Origin: a virus
DNA: 64,000 nt
Virus genome (UHGV): UHGV-0038496
Direction: 5' to 3' (one strand)
Below, piece after piece: positions 10,207 through 64,000 of this stretch; the stretch's first letter is position 1; each line of letters starts with the position of its first letter. Below the pieces are notes generated by a model. That model worked only from the letters and a program-made list of their open reading frames with translations. It made no database searches and was not told the origin of the DNA. The position numbers and the translations under genes are program-made.

Positions 10207-10282
10207 TGGCACCCCGTACAGGACTCGAACCTGTAACCTATGGCTTAGAAGGCCACTGTTCTTCCATTTGAACTAACGGGGC
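10207..10282 (-). tRNA. tRNA-Arg (anticodon TCT)
   Basis: 76 nt cloverleaf on minus strand: acceptor GCCCCGT/ACGGGGT (G1-U72), D stem GTTC/GAAC, anticodon stem GTGGC/GCCAT with loop CTTCTAA, T arm ACAGG-TTCGAGT-CCTGT, encoded CCA. Confidence 0.8.
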
Positions 10283-53729: not shown

Positions 53730-54026
53730 CTATTCTTCAACAGGGAAAACATCGTTCACGAAAGCGATGATCGCACCCTGGACCAGGTAGCGCGGGAAGA
53801 TGGCTTGATCCCCTGCCTCCTGGTGACCGTCTTCAAAGAGGCGATAGATCACCAGATAACTTTTTTCGTCAACCTTTTGGATCTCGACCTCCAGCCATCG
53901 ATCATGGTCATGGTCATCACGGAATGCCATCACCTGGCCGCCGTTTTTGTTGGCAATCTCAACCATTACAGCGGCATTGTCGATCATGCCGTCAAAGAAG
54001 AATAAACCGTTTGCAGGGATAAACAT
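53730..54026 (-). CDS. hypothetical protein
   Basis: Start at ATG after AAGGAG (MFIPANG...); His/Asp-rich. Confidence 0.45.
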   Translation of the reverse strand: MFIPANGLFFFDGMIDNAAVMVEIANKNGGQVMAFRDDHDHDRWLEVEIQKVDEKSYLVIYRLFEDGHQEAGDQAIFPRYLVQGAIIAFVNDVFPVEE

Positions 54027-54085
54027 AATAATCACTCCTTTCGATTTGGTGGATAGCTGGCGGGGTATCGTCCCCGCCTGGTTGC

Positions 54086-54376
54086 TTATTTGTTTTCTTT
54101 AATCATTTTGCCGATATACTCGATCACTGCTTTCAGCTGGCGGCGATCCTTGATCCAGGCTGGGAGGTCTTCCAGGTAGCTGCATAAGCTGCCACGGAAA
54201 AACATTTCTTCACCCTGTAAGTGATACAGTACTAAAGGCTCGCATTCATTTTCAAGATCCCAGATCCAGACTACGGGAACGGCCTTTTCTTCCACCTCGT
54301 TCCATGCTTCTTCAATCGTTACGTCCACACCGCGATTATTAGCAAAGTTAATTAGTTTTTTATCGATGATGCTCAT
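54086..54376 (-). CDS. hypothetical protein
   Basis: 96 aa, GGGAGG RBS. Confidence 0.45.
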   Translation of the reverse strand: MSIIDKKLINFANNRGVDVTIEEAWNEVEEKAVPVVWIWDLENECEPLVLYHLQGEEMFFRGSLCSYLEDLPAWIKDRRQLKAVIEYIGKMIKENK

Positions 54377-54453
54377 TTTATTTTCCTCCCTTCCTGCTCT
54401 TTATGATTAGTTTAATACCCTGGGGACTGCATTGCAAGCCCCTATCTTAAAAT

Positions 54454-54618
54454 TTACATAATTACCGCCTTTTTGCCTTCGGCTATTGCGATCCGGTAAA
54501 CTTCCATTGCTCGCATCCAGTCGCCTCCCTCGTACATCAAACGATAATTGCCGTTTTCCAACACTTCATAAATGGCATAGGCGGGAGCGCCATAATCTTT
54601 TACTAAATCTGCGTTCAT
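54454..54618 (-). CDS. hypothetical small protein
   Basis: 54 aa ORF below track cutoff; GGGGGAAAA upstream. Confidence 0.35.
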   Translation of the reverse strand: MNADLVKDYGAPAYAIYEVLENGNYRLMYEGGDWMRAMEVYRIAIAEGKKAVIM

Positions 54619-54631
54619 GATGTTTTCCCCC

Positions 54632-54724
54632 TTAAGCTACCACGATTGCCACAGCTGCCACTACACCTATTACAACTGCCGCCATAGTCAGAGCTAACAC
54701 ACTGCCTACGAATAAAGTTGCCAT
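54632..54724 (-). CDS. hypothetical small hydrophobic peptide
   Basis: 30 aa all-hydrophobic ORF after GGGGAGG. Confidence 0.3.
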   Translation of the reverse strand: MATLFVGSVLALTMAAVVIGVVAAVAIVVA

Positions 54725-54928
54725 AATCTTTTCCTCCCCTTCGTGTTACTGTTTACTGCCTTCACCTATAGAATACAGTATGGGGGGCAGTAGTCAACAC
54801 CTTTTGTAAAAAAAAATCCTGGTAGTCGTTGGCATCGGCGGCACTGACTAACCAGGATGGGCAAACATCAAAAATAAGGCATCAAACGGGGCGTAGGACG
54901 CAAAAAACTTAGTTCCCTTTGTACTTCT

Positions 54929-55282
54929 TCATAGCTGGATAATATAGCCCTTAGAATCGTATAGACGGCGTTCCAGCGCTTCATAATAAAAACCCGCAAG
55001 GCTAAAAAGGCAGTGATTAGCACGTAAAACTTCCGCTGCATAAGCCGGATCCGCTTCCATTCGTTTGATTAGAATATTCTGCCACGCCAGGCGACGGATC
55101 TCACCGTTAACGTTACGTTTGATCAAAGTGTCTACTTTGTAGAGTCGTGCGGCTTGAGCGGCTTTTTTCGCTTTTACCCGCAAGGCCTCTTTTTCGTAGG
55201 CTATCACCGCGCCGATGGCCTCATCCTGGGCTTTTGCTGCCAATAGGTCGAAAGTTAACAGGCTAACGCTTGCACGTTTCAT
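54929..55282 (-). CDS. hypothetical protein
   Basis: 117 aa ORF. Confidence 0.45.
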   Translation of the reverse strand: MKRASVSLLTFDLLAAKAQDEAIGAVIAYEKEALRVKAKKAAQAARLYKVDTLIKRNVNGEIRRLAWQNILIKRMEADPAYAAEVLRANHCLFSLAGFYYEALERRLYDSKGYIIQL

Positions 55283-55308
55283 AGTAATTTACCTCTTATG
55301 CTGTTGCA

Positions 55309-55536
55309 TTATTTATTATCATTCCGGTAAATAACTTTTCCGTTCCGGTCCATCAGCACGCCGATTAATCCGTGGCGTTCGTGGTAGTATTTTTCCATTT
55401 TGAAGATTAAAAAATCTTCTGCTTTATCATATTCATAGCAAGAAACGATATAATCAGGGCGAAAATATATAAAATGGTTAGCATGTGGATTTTTTTCTTT
55501 TGCCTGATTAAATGCTTTGCTGTCAACGATAATCAT
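55309..55536 (-). CDS. hypothetical protein
   Basis: Start at ATG after GGGGAG (MIIVDSK...). Confidence 0.45.
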   Translation of the reverse strand: MIIVDSKAFNQAKEKNPHANHFIYFRPDYIVSCYEYDKAEDFLIFKMEKYYHERHGLIGVLMDRNGKVIYRNDNK

Positions 55537-55553
55537 GATCTTTACTCCCCTTG

Positions 55554-55802
55554 TCAACCGTGCAATGCCTGCACATTGAAAGCGCCATAGATAGGATCAG
55601 CCGGAACATCAATTTTGTATTTTTCGCATTTAAAGACGATATAAACATAGTCTTTTTTGTCCTGCCTGATCGCACGTTCGACCATTTTCCCATTGTGCAC
55701 AAATACAACGTAACCGCTTGCGATGTACTGGTTAATGGCGACAGGTATCATAGTACGGCGAACGTTAGTACCCTTGTCGATTAAAGCGCTTAGATTTTTC
55801 AT
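55554..55802 (-). CDS. hypothetical protein
   Basis: 82 aa, GAGGAG RBS. Confidence 0.45.
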   Translation of the reverse strand: MKNLSALIDKGTNVRRTMIPVAINQYIASGYVVFVHNGKMVERAIRQDKKDYVYIVFKCEKYKIDVPADPIYGAFNVQALHG

Positions 55803-55843
55803 TTTGCTTACTCCTCTTTTCTTGTTGGACTTAAGGCCCTGCC

Positions 55844-56023
55844 TTACAGGGCCATTTTTAACAATTCATGCATGTCGAAATTTTCAAGGTTTTTAGCCAG
55901 GTAGACGGCTTTTTCTGCCACCTCCTCATCGATATCGTCATCGGGGAGAAGGTCCAGAGCATTTTCACGTTCACGCATTGCAACATTTACCAGGTTGTTA
56001 ACTTTTTTGATATTCCGTTTCAT
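55844..56023 (-). CDS. hypothetical small protein
   Basis: 59 aa ORF below track cutoff; AAGAGGAG RBS. Confidence 0.4.
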   Translation of the reverse strand: MKRNIKKVNNLVNVAMRERENALDLLPDDDIDEEVAEKAVYLAKNLENFDMHELLKMAL

Positions 56024-56100
56024 GATTTAGTACTCCTCTTATTTGGTGTGGTACTTCTTTTATTTACATCTTACAACAACCTGGCAGCTTGTCAACCTTT

Positions 56101-56631
56101 TTATTTCATCATTTTGCGAATTTTGTTAGCCATTGCCGGGTTATCTAGTACAAGGTTGTAGAGGTCTTTAAAATTCTCGGCGGCATCCTCATAACCATTC
56201 AGGCCATAGCCTTTTACCATTTTGTTAAAACCTGCTTTATCTTCCTCTATAACTTCCTCTTTTTCTTTGAAAATTAATTCGCCGTTATCATCAACCAGGT
56301 TGGCCCCATTGTCAAAAACCAGATTCCCTTTTTCCCCTTTATAAACATGGTCACGGATCACGACCTCTTTTAAAGCCTCCTGTATAACATATTTTGCATC
56401 ATTTGCACAATTGCGATCCGCCTTTTTCAACCAGGCCCCTTTTTCCTTGATATCCGCATCAGGATTAAAGGCGACCATAGGGGCAACAACTTCCCCGGCG
56501 CAATTCATTATAATTTCTTTCACATAGACGGGATTGATATGCTCAGGGGCTTCAACTTTAAAGCCGCCAGCGTTTACATTCGCACCGATAACCATCGCCA
56601 GGGCAGCTAAAACATATTTGAATGCTTTCAT
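56101..56631 (-). CDS. secreted/periplasmic protein (signal peptide)
   Basis: Start at MKAFKYVLAALAMVIGANVNA after AGAGGA; hydrophobic signal-like N-terminus, no lipobox Cys. Confidence 0.5.
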   Translation of the reverse strand: MKAFKYVLAALAMVIGANVNAGGFKVEAPEHINPVYVKEIIMNCAGEVVAPMVAFNPDADIKEKGAWLKKADRNCANDAKYVIQEALKEVVIRDHVYKGEKGNLVFDNGANLVDDNGELIFKEKEEVIEEDKAGFNKMVKGYGLNGYEDAAENFKDLYNLVLDNPAMANKIRKMMK

Positions 56632-56711
56632 GATTTTTTCCTCTTTCAAGTGGTTAATACTGCTTTCAGTTTTATAATATACTATCCTGGCAAGGTGTCA
56701 ACACTTTTATC

Positions 56712-56897
56712 TTATTTTGCTTCTCTTTCTCTTCGTGCCAGGTACTTACACCGGGCCAGGGCTAGATCGAAATCTGCGTAAGCGCTATCACAAGTAGAAT
56801 GTGTTAAACCTTTTACCATCACCTGGTAAACTTCCGGCCTAACCTCAAGGATCCAGTAGTTGCCCTCTTCGTAAAGTATTTGAGATTCTTTAATCAT
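56712..56897 (-). CDS. hypothetical protein
   Basis: 61 aa, AAGGAG RBS. Confidence 0.45.
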   Translation of the reverse strand: MIKESQILYEEGNYWILEVRPEVYQVMVKGLTHSTCDSAYADFDLALARCKYLARREREAK

Positions 56898-56945
56898 GGT
56901 GTTTACTCCTTTTAGTGCTTTATGTTGTGTTTTTATGTTCTGTCG

Positions 56946-57212
56946 TTATTTATGAGCGCCTTTTACGCCAACCAGGCGATTATATTCTAAGTGCTCAACA
57001 ATTAACCAATCTTTGAAATCGCCGTCACGGTTTAACAGCCGCCAATCTTTGTTGATATTGTATTTATAGCCATAGCCGCAATTTAACTTAGTAGGATGCA
57101 CCGCTTTCGCGTTGTGTGCTTCCAGGATGCTCAGGGCTTTTTTAAGAACGTTTGCGGGAGTATTTTTTTGCATTTTAACGTTCTTGATACCTTTAACGTC
57201 GATCATTTTCAT
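56946..57212 (-). CDS. hypothetical protein
   Basis: Start at ATG (MKMIDVK...) after AAAGGTGA. Confidence 0.4.
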   Translation of the reverse strand: MKMIDVKGIKNVKMQKNTPANVLKKALSILEAHNAKAVHPTKLNCGYGYKYNINKDWRLLNRDGDFKDWLIVEHLEYNRLVGVKGAHK

Positions 57213-57308
57213 GATGGTCACCTTTTTGTGTTTTGTTAGTCTTAACTACTTCTTTTAATTTAATTGTATATCTTTTAGATTCTGTGTCAACTACTTTTTT
57301 CTAACTTT

Positions 57309-57518
57309 TTACCCCTCCCTGGCAAGGCGTTCAAGCCGGATAACCATTCTTGCGACCGCCCTCCAATCCGCATCATTAAATTCATCCATAGGGGCCGGAT
57401 TGTTCATTACTTCCAGGTTGTTGATATTGACGTGATACGGTACAGCTTTTACAGGTGCGGCCTTTGCTGCCGCTTTTCTTGCTTTCGCCGCTTTGCGTTT
57501 ATCTCTACCCATGCCCAT
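57309..57518 (-). CDS. hypothetical protein (basic N-terminus)
   Basis: 69 aa, GAGGAG RBS, KRKAAKARKAAAKAA tract. Confidence 0.45.
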   Translation of the reverse strand: MGMGRDKRKAAKARKAAAKAAPVKAVPYHVNINNLEVMNNPAPMDEFNDADWRAVARMVIRLERLAREG

Positions 57519-57611
57519 GATTTGTTACTCCTCTGGTTGTTGGCCTTACTTCTTTCTTCATCTTTATAGTAAGAAAAAGGCCTGCACATTGCAAGCCTTT
57601 ATGAAGATTTT

Positions 57612-57893
57612 TTAAAACAACGCATGTAGCGGGTAACGGTTACCAGGGTAATAAATCACCTTGATCATTTCGTCCGGCAGGAAGAAGTTAAACCATTCGC
57701 CAGTGTTATCGTCTGGATCTTCGTCCGCATACATGAAGAAGTAGTCTACAGTTTCCTCGCCAGGGGCCTGGCCTTCGTTGTATTCTACCCTAGTTAATTT
57801 CAACGGGCGATCATTACGGATTATAACCATACCAGCCTGTAAATAACGGGCTTCAAAATTGATAACCGCGCCAGGTAATAAGTTAGGGAACAT
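57612..57893 (-). CDS. hypothetical protein
   Basis: Start at MFPNLLPG after AGAGGAG; G10 tract in 5' leader. Confidence 0.45.
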   Translation of the reverse strand: MFPNLLPGAVINFEARYLQAGMVIIRNDRPLKLTRVEYNEGQAPGEETVDYFFMYADEDPDDNTGEWFNFFLPDEMIKVIYYPGNRYPLHALF

Positions 57894-57917
57894 AATTTTA
57901 ACTCCTCTGTTGTTGGT

Positions 57918-57927
57918 GGGGGGGGGG
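57918..57927. repeat. homopolymeric G10/C10 tract
   Basis: Ten consecutive G in 5' leader of 57612-57893 gene. Confidence 0.7.
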
Positions 57928-58200
57928 TATTCCCCTTTCAAGAATAAGTATACACACAACAGACCACATTGCAAGAAAAATTTTATCAGATGATAACTAT
58001 TCTCATTTTGCAGGAGGCAACACTTTTGAGTCTGGATCGCTTCGAGGTTGGCAATAGTGGAAGCGTTGAAATCGATTTTTAGGCACCTGGCAGGGCCTGT
58101 AACGGCCTGGAATGGTGGGGGCTTTACACTTGCATATCTTGCTGGTAAATCTTGATGGCGGGGCTTACAGGAAGGATTTAAAACACAGGAGGCAGGGCCA

Positions 58201-58228
58201 TAAAAAAGGCCGCTGATTTGCGGCCCTT
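58201..58228 (-). terminator. rho-independent terminator
   Basis: AAGGGCCGCAAATCAGCGGCCTTTTTTA on minus strand. Confidence 0.6.
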
Positions 58229-58246
58229 CATAATAGTTTCACATTG

Positions 58247-58363
58247 TTATCTTTTCGCGTCGTGTTTATCGCCAGCTATACCGAAGACCTTCCAGCCTAC
58301 ACCGATCCCGATGATACAGATAAACCAGACAACCAGGGCACCAAGCCCGATCAAGATGTGCAT
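58247..58363 (-). CDS. hypothetical small membrane peptide
   Basis: 38 aa hydrophobic ORF after GAGGG, followed by terminator. Confidence 0.35.
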   Translation of the reverse strand: MHILIGLGALVVWFICIIGIGVGWKVFGIAGDKHDAKR

Positions 58364-58368
58364 TGTCG

Positions 58369-58719
58369 TTACCCTCTAAAATAATGTTTTACGATTGCAA
58401 TAATTACAGGCGCAACATAATAGACCACTGCACCCAAGACGGCCCACGGGGCCAGTTTTTTGGCGACTGGATAAATGTATTCACCGCACACATAGCACAC
58501 GATCCAGGCCAACATAATTTTAATCGGTGCATTGTAAAAGATGTTATGCACCCAATCAATATAAGCGTATGCCATACCGAAAAGCACCGCACCGATAGCG
58601 GCCCCACGGCATTTAATTTTACGGGCCGCTTTTTCGGCAGCTTCTCGATCAATGGCGTTCATCTCTGGGGCCATCTCGTTGACGTCCGGCATACGGTTTA
58701 ACAGGTCGATGATTCTCAT
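58369..58719 (-). CDS. integral membrane protein
   Basis: 116 aa, GAGGAAG RBS, three predicted hydrophobic helices. Confidence 0.5.
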   Translation of the reverse strand: MRIIDLLNRMPDVNEMAPEMNAIDREAAEKAARKIKCRGAAIGAVLFGMAYAYIDWVHNIFYNAPIKIMLAWIVCYVCGEYIYPVAKKLAPWAVLGAVVYYVAPVIIAIVKHYFRG

Positions 58720-58752
58720 TGTTTTTCTTCCTCATGGTTGTTTCCTTCTGCG

Positions 58753-58872
58753 TCAATTATAGATCGCTATAAAGTAAATGCCAACCCCCATAAGTGTTTC
58801 AATCGCCAGGATCTCACACCACGTTATCAAGTGGCTGATTGTATCATTGCAAGGTCGAGGCTTGTCTTTCAT
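58753..58872 (-). CDS. hypothetical small protein
   Basis: 39 aa ORF after AAGGGGAA. Confidence 0.3.
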   Translation of the reverse strand: MKDKPRPCNDTISHLITWCEILAIETLMGVGIYFIAIYN

Positions 58873-58933
58873 TTTCTTATTCCCCTTGTTGGTTGATGAT
58901 AGGGCCGGACTTCCGGCCCTGGTTGAAATTGTG

Positions 58934-59164
58934 TTACATGATAGTAAGTTTACGGCCTTTGATCATGATGTAACCGTGTCCAGCATTGCCCCAGATATCA
59001 ACGTAGACGCGGCGCATCCGGCCCTCGAAGTTGATCATCCAGTTAGTCGGTAATTTTTTACCGTAACCGCTTGCAGGCATTTTGGCGTTGACTGGTTTTT
59101 CAATCATGACTACATCAAAAAAGTTTTTATAGTCAAATGTTGCAACAGCTGGCATAAGGTCCAT
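58934..59164 (-). CDS. hypothetical protein
   Basis: 76 aa, AAGGGG RBS. Confidence 0.45.
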   Translation of the reverse strand: MDLMPAVATFDYKNFFDVVMIEKPVNAKMPASGYGKKLPTNWMINFEGRMRRVYVDIWGNAGHGYIMIKGRKLTIM

Positions 59165-59245
59165 GATGTTTCCCCTTCTTACTGTGTGGTTGAGTTCTCT
59201 TTATTGATGATCCACTTTCTCATCGTGGACCATCTAAAAGCTAAC

Positions 59246-59440
59246 TCATGCGGCTATTGCAATGATTCGTTCTGCTGCCTCAACCGCTTCATAGTCCAGA
59301 TTATTGTGGTGCGCTACATCCAGGAGGAAAGTTAGTGCATCTTTATAATCTTCGTAGTCGCAACGATAAGCCTCTACACCTTCAACAAGAATCGCAATTT
59401 TACCAGCTTTTTTCAGGTTTACGATGTTAATGTGTTTCAT
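59246..59440 (-). CDS. hypothetical protein
   Basis: 64 aa, AAGGAG RBS. Confidence 0.45.
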   Translation of the reverse strand: MKHINIVNLKKAGKIAILVEGVEAYRCDYEDYKDALTFLLDVAHHNNLDYEAVEAAERIIAIAA

Positions 59441-59515
59441 GATTTGTCACTCCTTTTAAATTGTTTACTGCTTTCGATTATCAGTATACTTGTTTTTTCT
59501 GATTTGTCAACCTTT

Positions 59516-59743
59516 CTAGACTTCTTCCGGTGCCGCTTTAAAGAATCCTCTAATGATCCGGCCTCCCCTTACACTTCTTGAAAAAATTGCGTCAACCTCG
59601 CGCCTGAATGCCTCTACCCAGATATCGCCCTTACTATCGCTATTCCTAACAATCCAGGCCATACGGTAGACCTTGTTATCGAAATTAATCACACCTTTAG
59701 ATGGTTTAACTCGATTCATGGGGAACTTGATAACGTTGCTCAT
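59516..59743 (-). CDS. hypothetical protein
   Basis: 75 aa, GAGGAAAATAAA-ATG. Confidence 0.45.
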   Translation of the reverse strand: MSNVIKFPMNRVKPSKGVINFDNKVYRMAWIVRNSDSKGDIWVEAFRREVDAIFSRSVRGGRIIRGFFKAAPEEV

Positions 59744-59907
59744 TTTATTTTCCTCGCTTAGTTGTTTATTTTTGTAGTGGGAGGTTTATAACCTCCCTCC
59801 TCTGTGTTTATAATGCTGCCCGTATATGATGTACCAGATGTTTAAAAGCTCGCGCCAGGTAAATTTATCATCTTCGGGCTTTTCTTTATCGTTTTTCATA
59901 CCCAACC

Positions 59908-59994
59908 TCATTTTTTGTTATTCAGACCTTTTAACATTTCTTTAATGAAATCTTCCACCCTTTCATATTCGTTTGCTTTGTAGTAGTCTTTCAT
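59908..59994 (-). CDS. hypothetical small protein
   Basis: 28 aa ORF with the same GAGGAAAATAAA-ATG context as the 59516 gene. Confidence 0.25.
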   Translation of the reverse strand: MKDYYKANEYERVEDFIKEMLKGLNNKK

Positions 59995-60300
59995 TTTATT
60001 TTCCTCGTTTTCTTTCAGCTTCCCCCGGTTTATCCGGTCCTTGTTGCCTCCCTGCATCCTTTCCTTTCAACTTTATTTTACTGCTTTGTGTTACCTTGTC
60101 AACCTTTTTTACTTCTTTCTAGTTTTAGGGCTTTTCGGCTCCCTCGGTCCTTCGGTTAGCTATGCTTCAAGGCTTTTCCTTTACCCTTCTTTTCCCGCTC
60201 CCGGAACTTTCCTTTCTGTTCCCTTTCTTCTCCTTTCGACTATAGAATACCAAACCGGGGGGCCGTGTCAATACCTTTTTCACAACTTTCTTAAAAATTT

Positions 60301-60405
60301 TTACTTCCGCATGTTGCTTAAGATAAAACCAACAACCAGGCAGCAGATAACCACAAAGGCCAGGCCCACAGCGATAAACGGATTCATCAGCATTTCAAGT
60401 AACAT
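60301..60405 (-). CDS. hypothetical small membrane peptide
   Basis: 34 aa hydrophobic ORF after GGAGG. Confidence 0.3.
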   Translation of the reverse strand: MLLEMLMNPFIAVGLAFVVICCLVVGFILSNMRK

Positions 60406-60407
60406 GA

Positions 60408-60617
60408 TCAGGCCTCCAATACCATAATTTCAAAGCGTGCGACGATAGGGCTAACGTCTACGAGGCACATCGGATCGACTACGCGATGGATAACGACTAG
60501 ATGATCATCATGCTTATCGATGTAATAATCCTCGTTATCAATTATTTCGCTTAGGTCATAATAACGGCCTTTCTCATAGCGGCCCCGTGCATCATTGGCA
60601 TAATCACAGTAGACCAT
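60408..60617 (-). CDS. hypothetical protein
   Basis: Start at ATG after AGGAGG (MVYCDYAND...). Confidence 0.45.
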   Translation of the reverse strand: MVYCDYANDARGRYEKGRYYDLSEIIDNEDYYIDKHDDHLVVIHRVVDPMCLVDVSPIVARFEIMVLEA

Positions 60618-60773
60618 TTTGCTTTCCTCCTGCTGTGTTTCTTCTTTCAATTAAAATAATACGCAGATCCTACAAGAAGTAAATAAGGTTTTACCTATTG
60701 ATTTTTGCGTTAGATGTGTTTTACAGGTTGGGGAGTGGCAAACGAAGAAAGGCCCCACCAGGGGGCCTATCGG

Positions 60774-60995
60774 TTAAATTTCGTCTGCTTTCATGCGTTC
60801 ACGCCGTGCTGCATATTTCATTTGCTGGCGTTCACGTTCAAGTAACAGGCGGCGTAAATTACGGTCGTAATAGTTGCGCCACAGTTTACCGAAGCGGCGC
60901 GGCTTGTTCAATTTGTTGTTACGCTGGCGGCGTTCCGGCAGTTCATCAGATAAATGATTGCGTTTAGTGATTTTTTCAAAGTTTACCATGTTCAT
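60774..60995 (-). CDS. hypothetical Arg-rich protein (possible nucleic-acid binding)
   Basis: 73 aa, about 25 percent Arg/Lys; AGGAGC RBS. Confidence 0.45.
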   Translation of the reverse strand: MNMVNFEKITKRNHLSDELPERRQRNNKLNKPRRFGKLWRNYYDRNLRRLLLERERQQMKYAARRERMKADEI

Positions 60996-61009
60996 AATCG
61001 GCGCTCCTG

Positions 61010-61348
61010 TTACTCGTTATCGTCGTTTTCTTCTGCTGCAATATTTGCCGCTACTGCTTTAATAAATTTTTTCGCGTCACCGTTGCGGCCCCACAGGTCA
61101 ACGATTAAAAATCCTGCCTGCTTTATCTTATTCGTGTACTCCAGCAAGTTGTAAGCCGGGATCGGCGACGGCGTTACATATTGTTTCCCGTGTCGGTCCT
61201 GGTACTTGATAACATAATCAGCACCCGGATCAATATCCCACGGATTCACCCGAAAAGCCTGGCACCTGGCGTAATAACTTTGATTTCTTACTTTGTTCCA
61301 GACTACCCCGATTGCAATAAATGTAAGTATGCACGTCACTAGATCCAT
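61010..61348 (-). CDS. membrane-anchored protein
   Basis: Start at MDLVTCILTFIAIGVVW after AAGAGGA; one N-terminal transmembrane helix. Confidence 0.45.
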   Translation of the reverse strand: MDLVTCILTFIAIGVVWNKVRNQSYYARCQAFRVNPWDIDPGADYVIKYQDRHGKQYVTPSPIPAYNLLEYTNKIKQAGFLIVDLWGRNGDAKKFIKAVAANIAAEENDDNE

Positions 61349-61435
61349 AGATTTTTCCTCTTTGCTATTGTGTGGGCATAATGTCACCTCCTCCTGGTTG
61401 GATAGGGGGCCGGACTCCCGGCCCCGCCTGGTATG

Positions 61436-61684
61436 TTATCCTAACATTTTAAAATAGTTGACGTTCAAAATTTTTTCAATATCGTCAACCGCTTTGATAT
61501 GCATGAAAGCAATCAATTTACCATCGATGCGGATAACCGGGCGGCCCAGGTGATAACCTTTAATCATACGCGCTTTTACTTTTCCACCTGCTCCCCCTTC
61601 ACGCCACCAAATGGCTTTTCCGTTGCTGTAATACCAATCAGCTTTTACCAGGTCCACCGCTGCAAAGTTAATTAATTTAGCCAT
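61436..61684 (-). CDS. hypothetical protein
   Basis: 82 aa, GAGAGGAG RBS. Confidence 0.45.
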   Translation of the reverse strand: MAKLINFAAVDLVKADWYYSNGKAIWWREGGAGGKVKARMIKGYHLGRPVIRIDGKLIAFMHIKAVDDIEKILNVNYFKMLG

Positions 61685-61761
61685 TGCGTAACTCCTCTCT
61701 TATTGTGGTTACACTAAATTATCTTTATGGATGGCCCCGCCAGGGCCATCTAAAAGGCAAC

Positions 61762-62100
61762 TTAGTTACGTAACGCTTCCTCTACTTCCTGCAATTCTGC
61801 TTCAAGGTCGGCCAATTCGTCGCACAAATCACAATAGTTTGCGTCATCGCTTACGTCTACGCTGTCTACATAGTCATTCAATCCGCAACGATAAGCAATC
61901 GGATCCAATTCGCGTAAGATTCTAGACGGTAAAAATTCGCAACCGCCTACCACTACCGCACCGCCTTCGTCTAGTACTTCATTGTAGTCATCTTCATAAT
62001 CAGCCGGATCGATTTCAAAATTCTCGATTTTATTGTTCAGTTGTTCGATAGCTGCAACCAGAGCGGCACGACGTGCAATCATTTCGACGTTAGCGTTCAT
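61762..62100 (-). CDS. hypothetical highly acidic protein
   Basis: 112 aa, Asp/Glu-rich; AGAGGAGA RBS. Confidence 0.5.
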   Translation of the reverse strand: MNANVEMIARRAALVAAIEQLNNKIENFEIDPADYEDDYNEVLDEGGAVVVGGCEFLPSRILRELDPIAYRCGLNDYVDSVDVSDDANYCDLCDELADLEAELQEVEEALRN

Positions 62101-62137
62101 AATGTTTTCTCCTCTGTTGTTACTTATTACTGTGGTT

Positions 62138-62166
62138 AGTTTACTTTATTGATGGCCCCGTGTCAA
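62138..62166 (-). promoter_or_regulatory. sigma70-like promoter within inverted-repeat module
   Basis: Minus strand TTGACA-17-TAAACT; -35 flanked by inverted repeat GATGGCC (62151-62157) / GGCCATC (62177-62183). Confidence 0.5.
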
Positions 62167-62198
62167 TACTTTTTGAGGCCATCTAAAAGCAAGCTATT

Positions 62199-62558
62199 TT
62201 ATTTGTATGCTAGTTCCACATAAAACCGCGCCATCAGTTCAAACCATTCTTCAATGTAACGTTCTTTAGTATCTTCTTTAGTTTTTTCATCAATGATCCC
62301 GAACTCACGCAGGCGGTTTAAAATGTCATCGTTGCAAAAATCGATATCAACACCGCTAGGAAGACCAGCCAGCCAGTCAGCCATAGCCTTCACACGATTG
62401 CCATTGAAGCGACGGATATAATAGCCGTCGAAATGCTCAGCTTCAAAGCGTGCTTTCAGTTCCTCAACGTCGTTGTCGTGTTCCATGTCATCAAAGTTCA
62501 AGCTATCAACTACATACTCACGAATTGCGTTAGCCATAGCCTTATTGATGCGTTTCAT
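62199..62558 (-). CDS. hypothetical protein
   Basis: 119 aa, AAGAGGAAAA RBS. Confidence 0.5.
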   Translation of the reverse strand: MKRINKAMANAIREYVVDSLNFDDMEHDNDVEELKARFEAEHFDGYYIRRFNGNRVKAMADWLAGLPSGVDIDFCNDDILNRLREFGIIDEKTKEDTKERYIEEWFELMARFYVELAYK

Positions 62559-62650
62559 AATATTTTCCTCTTTGTGATTTACTAATTACTTCTTTCAGTT
62601 TTAAGTTTACTTATTTTTGCTACCGTGTCAACTAATTTTTTGAATTTATT

Positions 62651-62743
62651 TTACATCATTACACGAAAGACCAACATAACCAGGTAGACCAGTACCATAA
62701 TCATAACATCGCGGCGGATCTGATAGCGAGAATAATTTTTCAT
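62651..62743 (-). CDS. hypothetical small membrane peptide
   Basis: 30 aa ORF after GAAGGGGAAA. Confidence 0.3.
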   Translation of the reverse strand: MKNYSRYQIRRDVMIMVLVYLVMLVFRVMM

Positions 62744-62774
62744 GATTGTTTCCCCTTCGTTGTGTGGATTTTTA

Positions 62775-62803
62775 GGTTACTTTATAGATGGCCCGGTGTC
62801 AAT
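62775..62803 (-). promoter_or_regulatory. sigma70-like promoter within inverted-repeat module
   Basis: Minus strand TTGACA-17-TAACCT; inverted repeat GATGGCC (62788-62794) / GGCCATC (62810-62816) around -35. Confidence 0.45.
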
Positions 62804-62825
62804 ATCCAGGCCATCGAAAAACAAC

Positions 62826-63236
62826 CTATAAGCTCATATAGTCACGATGTGCAATCATCCATGCAGCGTCTTTGTTTTCACAATAGCCGACGTGGCGAGA
62901 CTCCCCATCATAACGATAGATAACCTGGTAAACTGCTTCCCCTCTAAGGTCCAGGACGTGGCGCACTTCGTAACGTTTGCAACGTTTAACTTGTGCGATA
63001 CGTGCCCCGAAAATTAGTTTTACCAGTTCTTTCCAATGGCGACGGGCATCAGTTAAAGACACCACACTAAACCATGCTTGCCGCTCGCCATCAGCATTAA
63101 AAGCGCGAACATGGTAGCAACCGTGGGCCTTAAACAGATCCACCATTTCACGATCCCGCCCCTCTACCATTTGAACATATCCGCAAGCTAAAGCGAACGC
63201 AGTTAAACCATTTGCATTACGGAAAGTAGTTTTCAT
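62826..63236 (-). CDS. hypothetical protein
   Basis: 136 aa, CAGGAGAAAGG RBS; Cys/His-containing. Confidence 0.5.
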   Translation of the reverse strand: MKTTFRNANGLTAFALACGYVQMVEGRDREMVDLFKAHGCYHVRAFNADGERQAWFSVVSLTDARRHWKELVKLIFGARIAQVKRCKRYEVRHVLDLRGEAVYQVIYRYDGESRHVGYCENKDAAWMIAHRDYMSL

Positions 63237-63315
63237 GATCCTTTCTCCTGTGTTTTATTAATCTCGTTTACTGCTTTCATTGTTAAGTATACTTGTTTTT
63301 TATCGCCTGTCAACT

Positions 63316-63426
63316 CTATTTTTCATCTTTTTTAAAGAAATCGATCAGGCCTTTGATAACTGCCGCCAGGTGCAAGCCCAGCAAAAAGAAGGCATAGCCT
63401 ACAATGATTGCCGCGATAATGTTCAT
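63316..63426 (-). CDS. hypothetical small membrane peptide
   Basis: 36 aa ORF after CAGGAGG. Confidence 0.3.
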   Translation of the reverse strand: MNIIAAIIVGYAFFLLGLHLAAVIKGLIDFFKKDEK

Positions 63427-63500
63427 AATGTTGCCTCCTGTTGTGTGAATAGTAACTTTATTCATGGGGCCGTTGCTACAGCCCCAGGGTAAAGCGGCTA

Positions 63501-63746
63501 TTAGTGCGGCATTCCTACCATAGCGGCGCGGATGTTAGTTTTATTGTAAGGCACTCCATCAGGCGTATGAGTGATCCCCTCTTCTTTCAAGCGGTAAACC
63601 ATTAAATCAGCTGCCGCGTCTTTATTGCCACACTCATTAATCAGGCCCATCGCTAAAAACCATAAACCTTCGTCATTGTTGATCCAAAGTGCGACGTTCC
63701 ATTGATTGTAATTTTTCCAACCGTTATAACCTTTATTGCCTTTCAT
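63501..63746 (-). CDS. hypothetical protein
   Basis: 81 aa, AAGAGGA RBS, Trp/Asn-rich. Confidence 0.45.
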   Translation of the reverse strand: MKGNKGYNGWKNYNQWNVALWINNDEGLWFLAMGLINECGNKDAAADLMVYRLKEEGITHTPDGVPYNKTNIRAAMVGMPH

Positions 63747-63802
63747 AATTTTATCCTCTTTAGTTTTTGCCTCTGGGGAAATTTCTTTCCCTTTCGGTTT
63801 AT

Positions 63803-63830
63803 ATACTACATCTTTATTCTACCGTGTCAA
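63803..63830 (-). promoter_or_regulatory. sigma70-like promoter
   Basis: Minus strand TTGACA-16-TAGTAT; -35 overlaps stop codon of upstream partial gene. Confidence 0.45.
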
Positions 63831-64000
63831 CATTTTTTAAAGAATTTTTCTACCGTGATATCTTTCCCAGCAGGTTTAGCCACTTTCAGAATTTTATCAT
63901 GCACCGGGCGCCCGAAAGAATAAGCGCCATACACAGTAAGCCAATAATCCCCGTTAGGCTGTACTATTACCGCTGCATATGGTACGCCTTTCTCGTTATC
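63827..64000 (-). CDS. hypothetical protein, 5' end beyond window
   Basis: Open frame from window edge to TGA at 63827-63829; not in track because partial. Confidence 0.35.
   Translation of the reverse strand, partial: DNEKGVPYAAVIVQPNGDYWLTVYGAYSFGRPVHDKILKVAKPAGKDITVEKFFKKC

Follow-up and report, generated by a model that had tools for sequence, protein, structure and literature searches.

A length-variable homopolymer in the leader of a small early gene of an rV5-like phage, probably a tolerated slippage hotspot on a leader hairpin

We analysed a 64-kb stretch of phage DNA (the window throughout this text) in which a single ten-residue G/C homopolymer lies in the leader of a small early gene. 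This tract is an ordinary simple-sequence length polymorphism in a non-coding leader. On balance, we consider it probable that the run is a slippage hotspot tolerated on a leader hairpin, acting at most as a graded tuner of the gene that follows.

Genomic setting

The window comes from an uncultured rV5-like (Vequintavirinae-related) human-gut phage of about 140 kb, with a portal protein 82% identical to those of Escherichia phage rV5 and other Vequintavirus members. The minus strand carries one tRNA gene, tRNA-Arg(TCT), at 10207-10282. The 54-64 kb region consists of many short minus-strand ORFs, each preceded by a near-consensus sigma-70-type promoter. About 12 minus-strand promoters of the form TTGACA-16/17-TAnnnT (e.g. 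at 63313, 62631, 59510, 57974 and 56701) were noticed between 54000 and 64000. A GAAAG(C/A)AGTA(A) motif is common to these promoters, 7-8 nt 3' of the -10 hexamer, and looks like a conserved initial transcribed sequence of early genes.

The earlier note had reported ten G residues at 57918-57927, and direct reading of the sequence confirms this exactly: the plus strand reads GGGGGGGGGG, an uninterrupted G10 with T on either flank. Its placement of the run between the -10 element and the ribosome-binding site of the 57612-57893 gene also agrees with the minus-strand order of these elements. The strand had to be corrected, since the gene lies on the minus strand; the mRNA consequently contains C10, with G10 on the template strand. 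No other G or C run longer than 6 nt exists in the window, the next-longest being G6 (three times) and C6 (four times). Under a first-order Markov model, the expected number of runs with ten or more residues is 0.019 for G and 0.008 for C, together about 0.03. A side observation concerns the G/C-rich palindromic sequence GGGGAGAGGGTCCCCCCTCCCCCC at 536-560, which contains two C6 runs and lies just downstream of the minus-strand ORF 586-1593; read on the minus strand, it resembles a terminator hairpin, GGGGGGAGGGGGGACCCTCTCCCC, with TTT after it.

Judging from its alignment and its codon-position bias, the 57612-57893 gene is real. The alignment of its 93-aa protein across two clades contains 38 invariant columns, with about 52% identity between the clades, and column identity by codon position (0.982, 0.999 and 0.935) reveals substitution biased towards the third position. 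No Pfam match was found for the protein, and its PHROG family, phrog_12610, has no known function attached. An AlphaFold model (pLDDT 75) takes the form of a small beta-barrel, the best matches of which, all weak, are to the N-terminal KOW/SH3-like domain of eIF5A and EF-P (Foldseek E about 1e-3, TM about 0.55).

Several features of the neighbourhood were noted in passing. The minus-strand ORF at 56946-57221 encodes a small protein with a ParE-like toxin domain (PF24732, E 3e-11) and is kept in all relatives. In some related contigs (L008 at 2464-2958, L009, L015, L022 and L024), an HNH_3 endonuclease ORF of 164 aa follows 3' of the ParE-like gene; it is missing from the window, as expected of a mobile homing endonuclease. 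On the other side of the promoter, about 230 nt without a conserved ORF (57975-58204, minus strand) separate it from an upstream terminator around 58230-58205. All relatives contain this segment; its column identity is 0.93, roughly that of synonymous positions, and several blocks in it are fully conserved. It has no Rfam match and may represent a decayed gene or an unrecognised element. Further upstream, a 127-nt segment within 58240-58370, which carries a hydrophobic 38-aa ORF (58247-58363), is polymorphic for presence and absence, being found in the window and 19 relatives and cleanly missing from 18 others.

Leader architecture

The elements of the leader and of the gene, in the order of transcription, are as follows.

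57969..57974, minus strand, -35 hexamer TTGCAA (promoter scan), present in 53 of 53 related leaders
57947..57952, minus strand, -10 hexamer TATACT with a 16-nt spacer from the -35 hexamer (promoter scan), invariant in relatives
57935..57939, minus strand, putative transcript start G 57939 with the GAAAG initial transcribed motif (from motif position)
57932..57935, minus strand, 5' arm of the stem-loop, GGGG, about +5 to +8, paired with the C run at a probability of at least 0.99 (RNAfold)
57928..57931, minus strand, loop AATA, in relatives AATA or ATA
57918..57927, minus strand, C10 tract, made up of the 3' arm and six surplus C, about +13 to +22 (from sequence)
57908..57917, minus strand, CA-rich spacer ACCAACAACA, made of AAC units and likewise a simple repeat of variable length (38-sequence alignment)
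57902..57907, minus strand, Shine-Dalgarno sequence GAGGAG, 8 nt ahead of the ATG at 57893 (from sequence)
57612..57893, minus strand, 93-aa gene (phrog_12610, rV5 gp171 family; alignment and codon-position bias)
57576..57600, minus strand, terminator-like hairpin 3' of the 93-aa gene (terminator scan)

The transcript of the 93-aa gene likely starts at the G of GAAAG (57939). We take this G as the start because GAAAG or AAAG sits 7-8 nt past the -10 hexamer in about 12 early promoters; a literature search for start-site or transcriptome data on rV5-like phages returned nothing relevant. The minus strand reads TATTCTT between TATACT and GAAAG, and GAAAG overlaps the start of the GGGG arm by one base, its final G. 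Among related leaders, the bases directly 3' of TTGCAA vary in some cases, the 5' arm is either GGGG or GGGGG, and the spacer ACCAACAACA occurs also as ACCAAC-AA, ACCAACAAC and ACCAACAACAAC. AGGAG of the Shine-Dalgarno sequence is invariant in the cross-clade leader alignment.

Two sequence similarities to the region 3' of the gene were observed. The hairpin at 57576-57600 contains TTGCAATGTG, the same 10-mer as found in the -35 region of the promoter of the 93-aa gene, and this copy may double as the -35 element of the next gene (TTGCAA-17-TACTAT). Ahead of that next gene, at about 57545-57525, lies CCAACAACCAGAGGAG, which is similar to the spacer ACCAACAACA.

A hairpin shared by divergent leaders

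In the window, the leader forms a GGGG-AATA-CCCC stem-loop with a pairing probability of at least 0.99 (RNAfold), the stem of which begins about 4 nt (3-5) after the putative transcript start. Gut relatives carry GGGGG-ATA-CCCCC, a perfect 5-bp stem, or GGGG-AATA-CCCCC at the same site. From this, the run of the window can be read as the 3' arm of the hairpin plus about six surplus C residues. The leaders of cultured Vequintavirus members contain GGGGG-AGG-CCCCC, GGGGGG-CGG-CCCCC or GGGGGC-loop-GCCTCC. At an equal distance from the -10 hexamer, a third clade has the non-homopolymeric GGCGGC-AATAGC-GCCGCC, and a further contig (L070) has GGGGAAA-AAA-TTTCCCC.

As the hairpin arms were left out of register by the MAFFT cross-clade alignment, folding of individual sequences and shuffling were used instead of a formal covariation count. 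A G/C stem was found at the same position in 39 of the 41 distinct leaders, which represent four sub-clades and differ in their arm sequences. The structure is therefore kept in orthologues despite sequence change, as is characteristic of ompA-type stem-loops. Compared with composition-matched shuffles, hairpin energies were significant for short-tract leaders of the gut clade (0.004-0.015), for the third clade (at most 0.008) and for L070; they were unremarkable in Vequintavirus leaders (0.16-0.30) and in the C10 leader of the window (0.11). In the early region of the window, about 20 other promoter-like sites were scanned and only two of them were followed by a stable hairpin. Since orthologous leaders keep a G/C-rich hairpin of differing sequence, we regard it as probably a functional element. 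It is nevertheless dispensable, because two leader types, GAAAGAAGAGTACCCCCC and GAAAACAGAAACACCC, together 9 of the 53 leaders, lack it; 6 of these 9 also lack a C run longer than 3.

An Rfam 15 scan of 54000-64000 gave no match at the leader; the sole hit in this region was a sub-threshold Trp_leader at 58200-58280 (25 bits against a gathering threshold of 41, E 0.14). We also considered the leader hairpin as an intrinsic terminator or attenuator and rejected this possibility: no U run is present, since what comes after the hairpin is a series of C and CA repeats when the minus strand is read, and TTTC when the plus strand is read. The terminator scan did not report the leader hairpin.

Variability of tract length

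A megablast search of 57400-58400 against 50,697 phage records gave no match, and relatives were therefore reached via the protein. The gut-clade comparison comprised 53 leaders from contigs related to the window. A metagenome scan contributed 3 of these, the usable leaders from 10 hits, while a pattern scan of IMG/VR yielded only two contigs, both already in the set; a 17-mer scan of genome contigs produced 86 chance matches in unrelated bacteria only. The exact protein of the window is also encoded by three further contigs, the leaders of which lie outside the comparison. The longest C run in each leader was distributed as follows.

C3, 10 of 53 leaders
C4, 4 of 53 leaders
C5 (mode), 19 of 53 leaders
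C6, 12 of 53 leaders
C7, 4 of 53 leaders
C8, 2 of 53 leaders
C10, 1 of 53 leaders (the window)
C11, 1 of 53 leaders (L005)

Some related leaders contain interrupted tracts (CCTCCC, CCTCCCC and CCTCCCCC), and runs from C5 to C8 occur among contigs that encode one identical protein allele. The C11 contig (L005; ENA ERZ27287477, k141_617802) agrees with the window at every base of a 3282-bp alignment apart from one gap, which is the extra C; these two contigs possibly come from the same sample. Among near-identical pairs in the clade of the window, only this pair differs in tract length; in the other pairs, all with short tracts, the two members agree. In the 1.2-kb alignment of 38 sequences, the C run and the AAC repeat have 7 length alleles each, the most of any site, and other intergenic A/T runs are length-variable as well.

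In Vequintavirus, it is the opposite, G-rich arm that varies. Between identical flanks, phage CM1 has G5, PDX and naswa G6, nom G7 and ime G9, the other arm being C5 or CCTCC. The longest run at this site was found in Escherichia phage V18 (L056, NC_041937.1), with G17 in the leader of its gp171 orthologue. We observed that in V18, which is a cultured phage, G17 takes the place of most of the leader hairpin. The number of G residues differs in 10 of 13 Vequintavirus pairs diverged by less than 1.2% (over about 433 nt); ime (G9) and MaxBurger (G6), for instance, are separated by just 2 mismatches in 431 nt.

Mutation in G/C mononucleotide runs proceeds by replication slippage, and its rate climbs steeply with run length. 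The ten-residue run exceeds the length of about 8 or more at which G/C tracts become unstable, and differences in tract length between closely related genomes, as expected of a contingency locus, were found here in comparisons between genomes. Homopolymer length at the gp171-family leader has thus changed repeatedly, at a pace that outstrips substitution, and in two clades independently, on the C arm in the gut clade and on the G arm in Vequintavirus. The notion of a slippage-prone tract put forward in the earlier note, and with it hypermutability, is thus supported by C3 to C11 in 53 leaders, by the C10/C11 pair and by G5 to G17 in Vequintavirus, and the tract works like a simple-sequence repeat locus.

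Consequences of tract length and competing explanations

The proposal that the tract is a phase-variable expression switch is not supported by the analysis. A contingency tract of the classical kind lies within an ORF or between the -35 and -10 hexamers; this one lies outside both the promoter spacer and the conserved ORF, and because of this placement we do not class it as a phase-variable switch. A promoter scan of both strands detected no promoter-like site with the tract in its spacer, and that arrangement was discarded. When the leader was folded with C3 to C14, stem pairing was at least 0.99 from C4 upward and the mean unpaired probability of the Shine-Dalgarno sequence stayed at 0.42-0.46. 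Folding thus predicts the same hairpin and an equally accessible Shine-Dalgarno sequence from C4 to C14; being thermodynamic, the calculation is blind to effects exerted via RNA polymerase, Rho, ribosomal protein S1 or standby-site binding. Moreover, C-run lengths are unimodal at 5-6 with a thin upper tail, which fits slippage under weak or no selection rather than two favoured states.

In the explanation we favour, a short G:C stem-loop would lie at the mRNA 5' end of a small early gene, and the run would be its 3' arm in over-extended form. The hairpin would most likely act as a 5'-proximal shield against 5'-end-dependent decay, as in ompA-type leaders. Replication slippage in the homopolymeric arms would alter arm length, and surplus C residues would merely extend the unstructured C/CA-rich stretch that separates the hairpin from the Shine-Dalgarno sequence, so that selection would tolerate them and the run would drift. 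The outcome of this drift would be 5-6 residues in most genomes and 10-11 in the lineage of the window. The length of the tract would be expected to have no effect, or to cause a small graded shift in translation or stability, without ON/OFF behaviour. We infer the protective role of the hairpin and slippage as the mechanism of length change from established knowledge, and we infer the near-neutrality of tract length as well. The 5'-terminal position of the hairpin depends on the putative transcript start and is equally tentative.

The main competing possibility, which we consider unlikely, is a functional contingency or rheostat locus, in which slippage in the leader would step the mRNA level or translation of the 93-aa protein up and down in a heritable and reversible manner. 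A longer single-stranded spacer between a 5' hairpin and the Shine-Dalgarno sequence could raise standby-site binding, which would provide a route for such an effect. In addition, the tract is longer than what usually suffices for instability, its length differs between near-identical genomes, and long tracts arose independently in two clades on different arms (C10/C11 on one side, G9 of ime and G17 of V18 on the other). That an upstream G(n) tract can shift mRNA about 20-fold is documented for uspA1 (PMC7302503). Against this stand the position of the tract, in neither a promoter spacer nor an ORF, the lack of any predicted effect of length on hairpin or Shine-Dalgarno accessibility, the unimodal lengths expected under drift, and the leaders that dispense with the hairpin and, for the most part, with any C run longer than 3. 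Selection for variability might, counting against the explanation we favour, also account for the expansion of this one leader in two clades, which reaches G17. It is distinctly unlikely, in our estimation, that rV5-like phages keep the homopolymer of the gp171 leader as a true contingency locus for bet-hedging against a host factor or defence system that detects the gp171-family protein or is counteracted by it. If they did, slippage would generate sub-populations with differing amounts of the small beta-barrel gp171-family protein, and no phase-variable or rheostat element that is non-coding and situated in a leader would have been described earlier from a virulent coliphage group.

We find it quite improbable that the long tracts are sequencing or assembly artefacts, i.e. 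that the true tract has 5-6 residues as in relatives and C10 and C11 are homopolymer miscalls. Homopolymers are indeed error-prone, and two assemblies of one strain differ by one base. Both of these assemblies nevertheless contain at least ten residues, and L005, being a k141 MEGAHIT-style contig, must have been built from short accurate reads. Six other independent assemblies show lengths of 7 and 8 and several isolate genomes G7 to G9 at the orthologous site, and a consensus error of 4-5 bases is unlikely. The agreement of two assemblies on at least ten residues and the intermediate lengths in independent assemblies and isolates make an outright artefact unlikely. Of the earlier suggestion that the tract is a sequencing-error hotspot, what survives is that the one-base difference between C10 and C11 may be noise; the run of at least ten, on which two assemblies agree, argues against the remainder.

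It is very improbable that the GGGG-N4-CCCC inverted repeat serves as a DNA-level operator bound by a phage or host regulator, with tract length altering the binding. The repeat does occupy a classical roadblock position, at about +5 to +16. Its arms are, however, wholly different between clades (GGGGG/CCCCC, GGGGGC/GCCTCC, GGCGGC/GCCGCC and GGGGAAA/TTTCCCC) with complementarity kept, and a folded strand therefore fits better than sequence-specific recognition. The motif is also absent from other early promoters, save for one different hairpin at 63830. Scarcely conceivable is a coding frameshift switch, in which the tract would be part of an N-terminal extension starting at TTG 57974, a 120-aa ORF listed by the ORF finder. 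In the window this ORF, 57612-57974, stays open and crosses the tract in frame; yet its TTG is part of the -35 hexamer and has no ribosome-binding site, the extension does not stay in frame in L005 (C11) or in relatives carrying C5, C6 or C8, and protein conservation begins at the ATG preceded by a canonical Shine-Dalgarno sequence. The N-terminal coding extension is contradicted by these comparative data, as its frame is not conserved.

Implications

Apart from the mechanism, the tract marks a site at which assemblies of rV5-like phages will disagree, and single-base differences there should therefore not be read as strain differences. The analysis also flags a conserved 5' hairpin on one specific early transcript. 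Finally, cultivable Vequintavirus phages (CM1, PDX, nom, ime and V18) provide a natural allelic series of 5 to 17 residues on either hairpin arm, with which it can be tested cheaply whether homopolymers in a leader adjust how strongly an early gene of a lytic coliphage is expressed.

Comparison with characterized leaders and repeat loci

The tract and its hairpin share features with several known systems. In the Neisseria porA and opc genes, poly-G or poly-C tracts between the -35 and -10 elements change promoter spacing. The tract of the window resembles them as a homopolymer beside promoter elements, and differs in being located downstream of the -10 hexamer and of the putative transcript start.

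As for the hairpin, a stem-loop near the 5' end reportedly shields E. coli mRNA from 5'-end-dependent RNase E decay. The leader studied here is similar to those of ompA and papA in having a short stable stem-loop a few nucleotides from its putative 5' end and upstream of an accessible ribosome-binding site, with a structure kept in orthologues that differ in sequence. In contrast to the ompA hairpin, the stem comprises only 4-7 bp, its homopolymeric arms are unstable in length and the transcript start is deduced from motif position.

Campylobacter phages are said to carry hypermutable polyG tracts within coding sequences, which switch the frame of receptor-binding genes. Both there and here, a slippage-prone G/C homopolymer resides in a phage genome and differs in length between close relatives; the tracts of Campylobacter phages are coding and frame-switching, whereas the tract of the window is non-coding and shifts no frame. 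If an effect on expression were found, the range of hypermutable phage tracts would extend beyond the coding sequences seen in Campylobacter phages and into untranslated leaders.

The nearest functional analogue would be the tract upstream of uspA1 in Moraxella catarrhalis. In that gene, the upstream G(n) tract changes the mRNA about 20-fold and its selection in biofilm has been measured (PMC7302503). A G/C homopolymer of about 8-12 residues ahead of the ORF, variable in length between strains, is common to uspA1 and to the leader described here (PMC7302503). The two differ in that an effect on expression was measured for uspA1, whereas folding predicts none here, and in that a bacterial adhesin is encoded there and an early gene of a lytic phage here.
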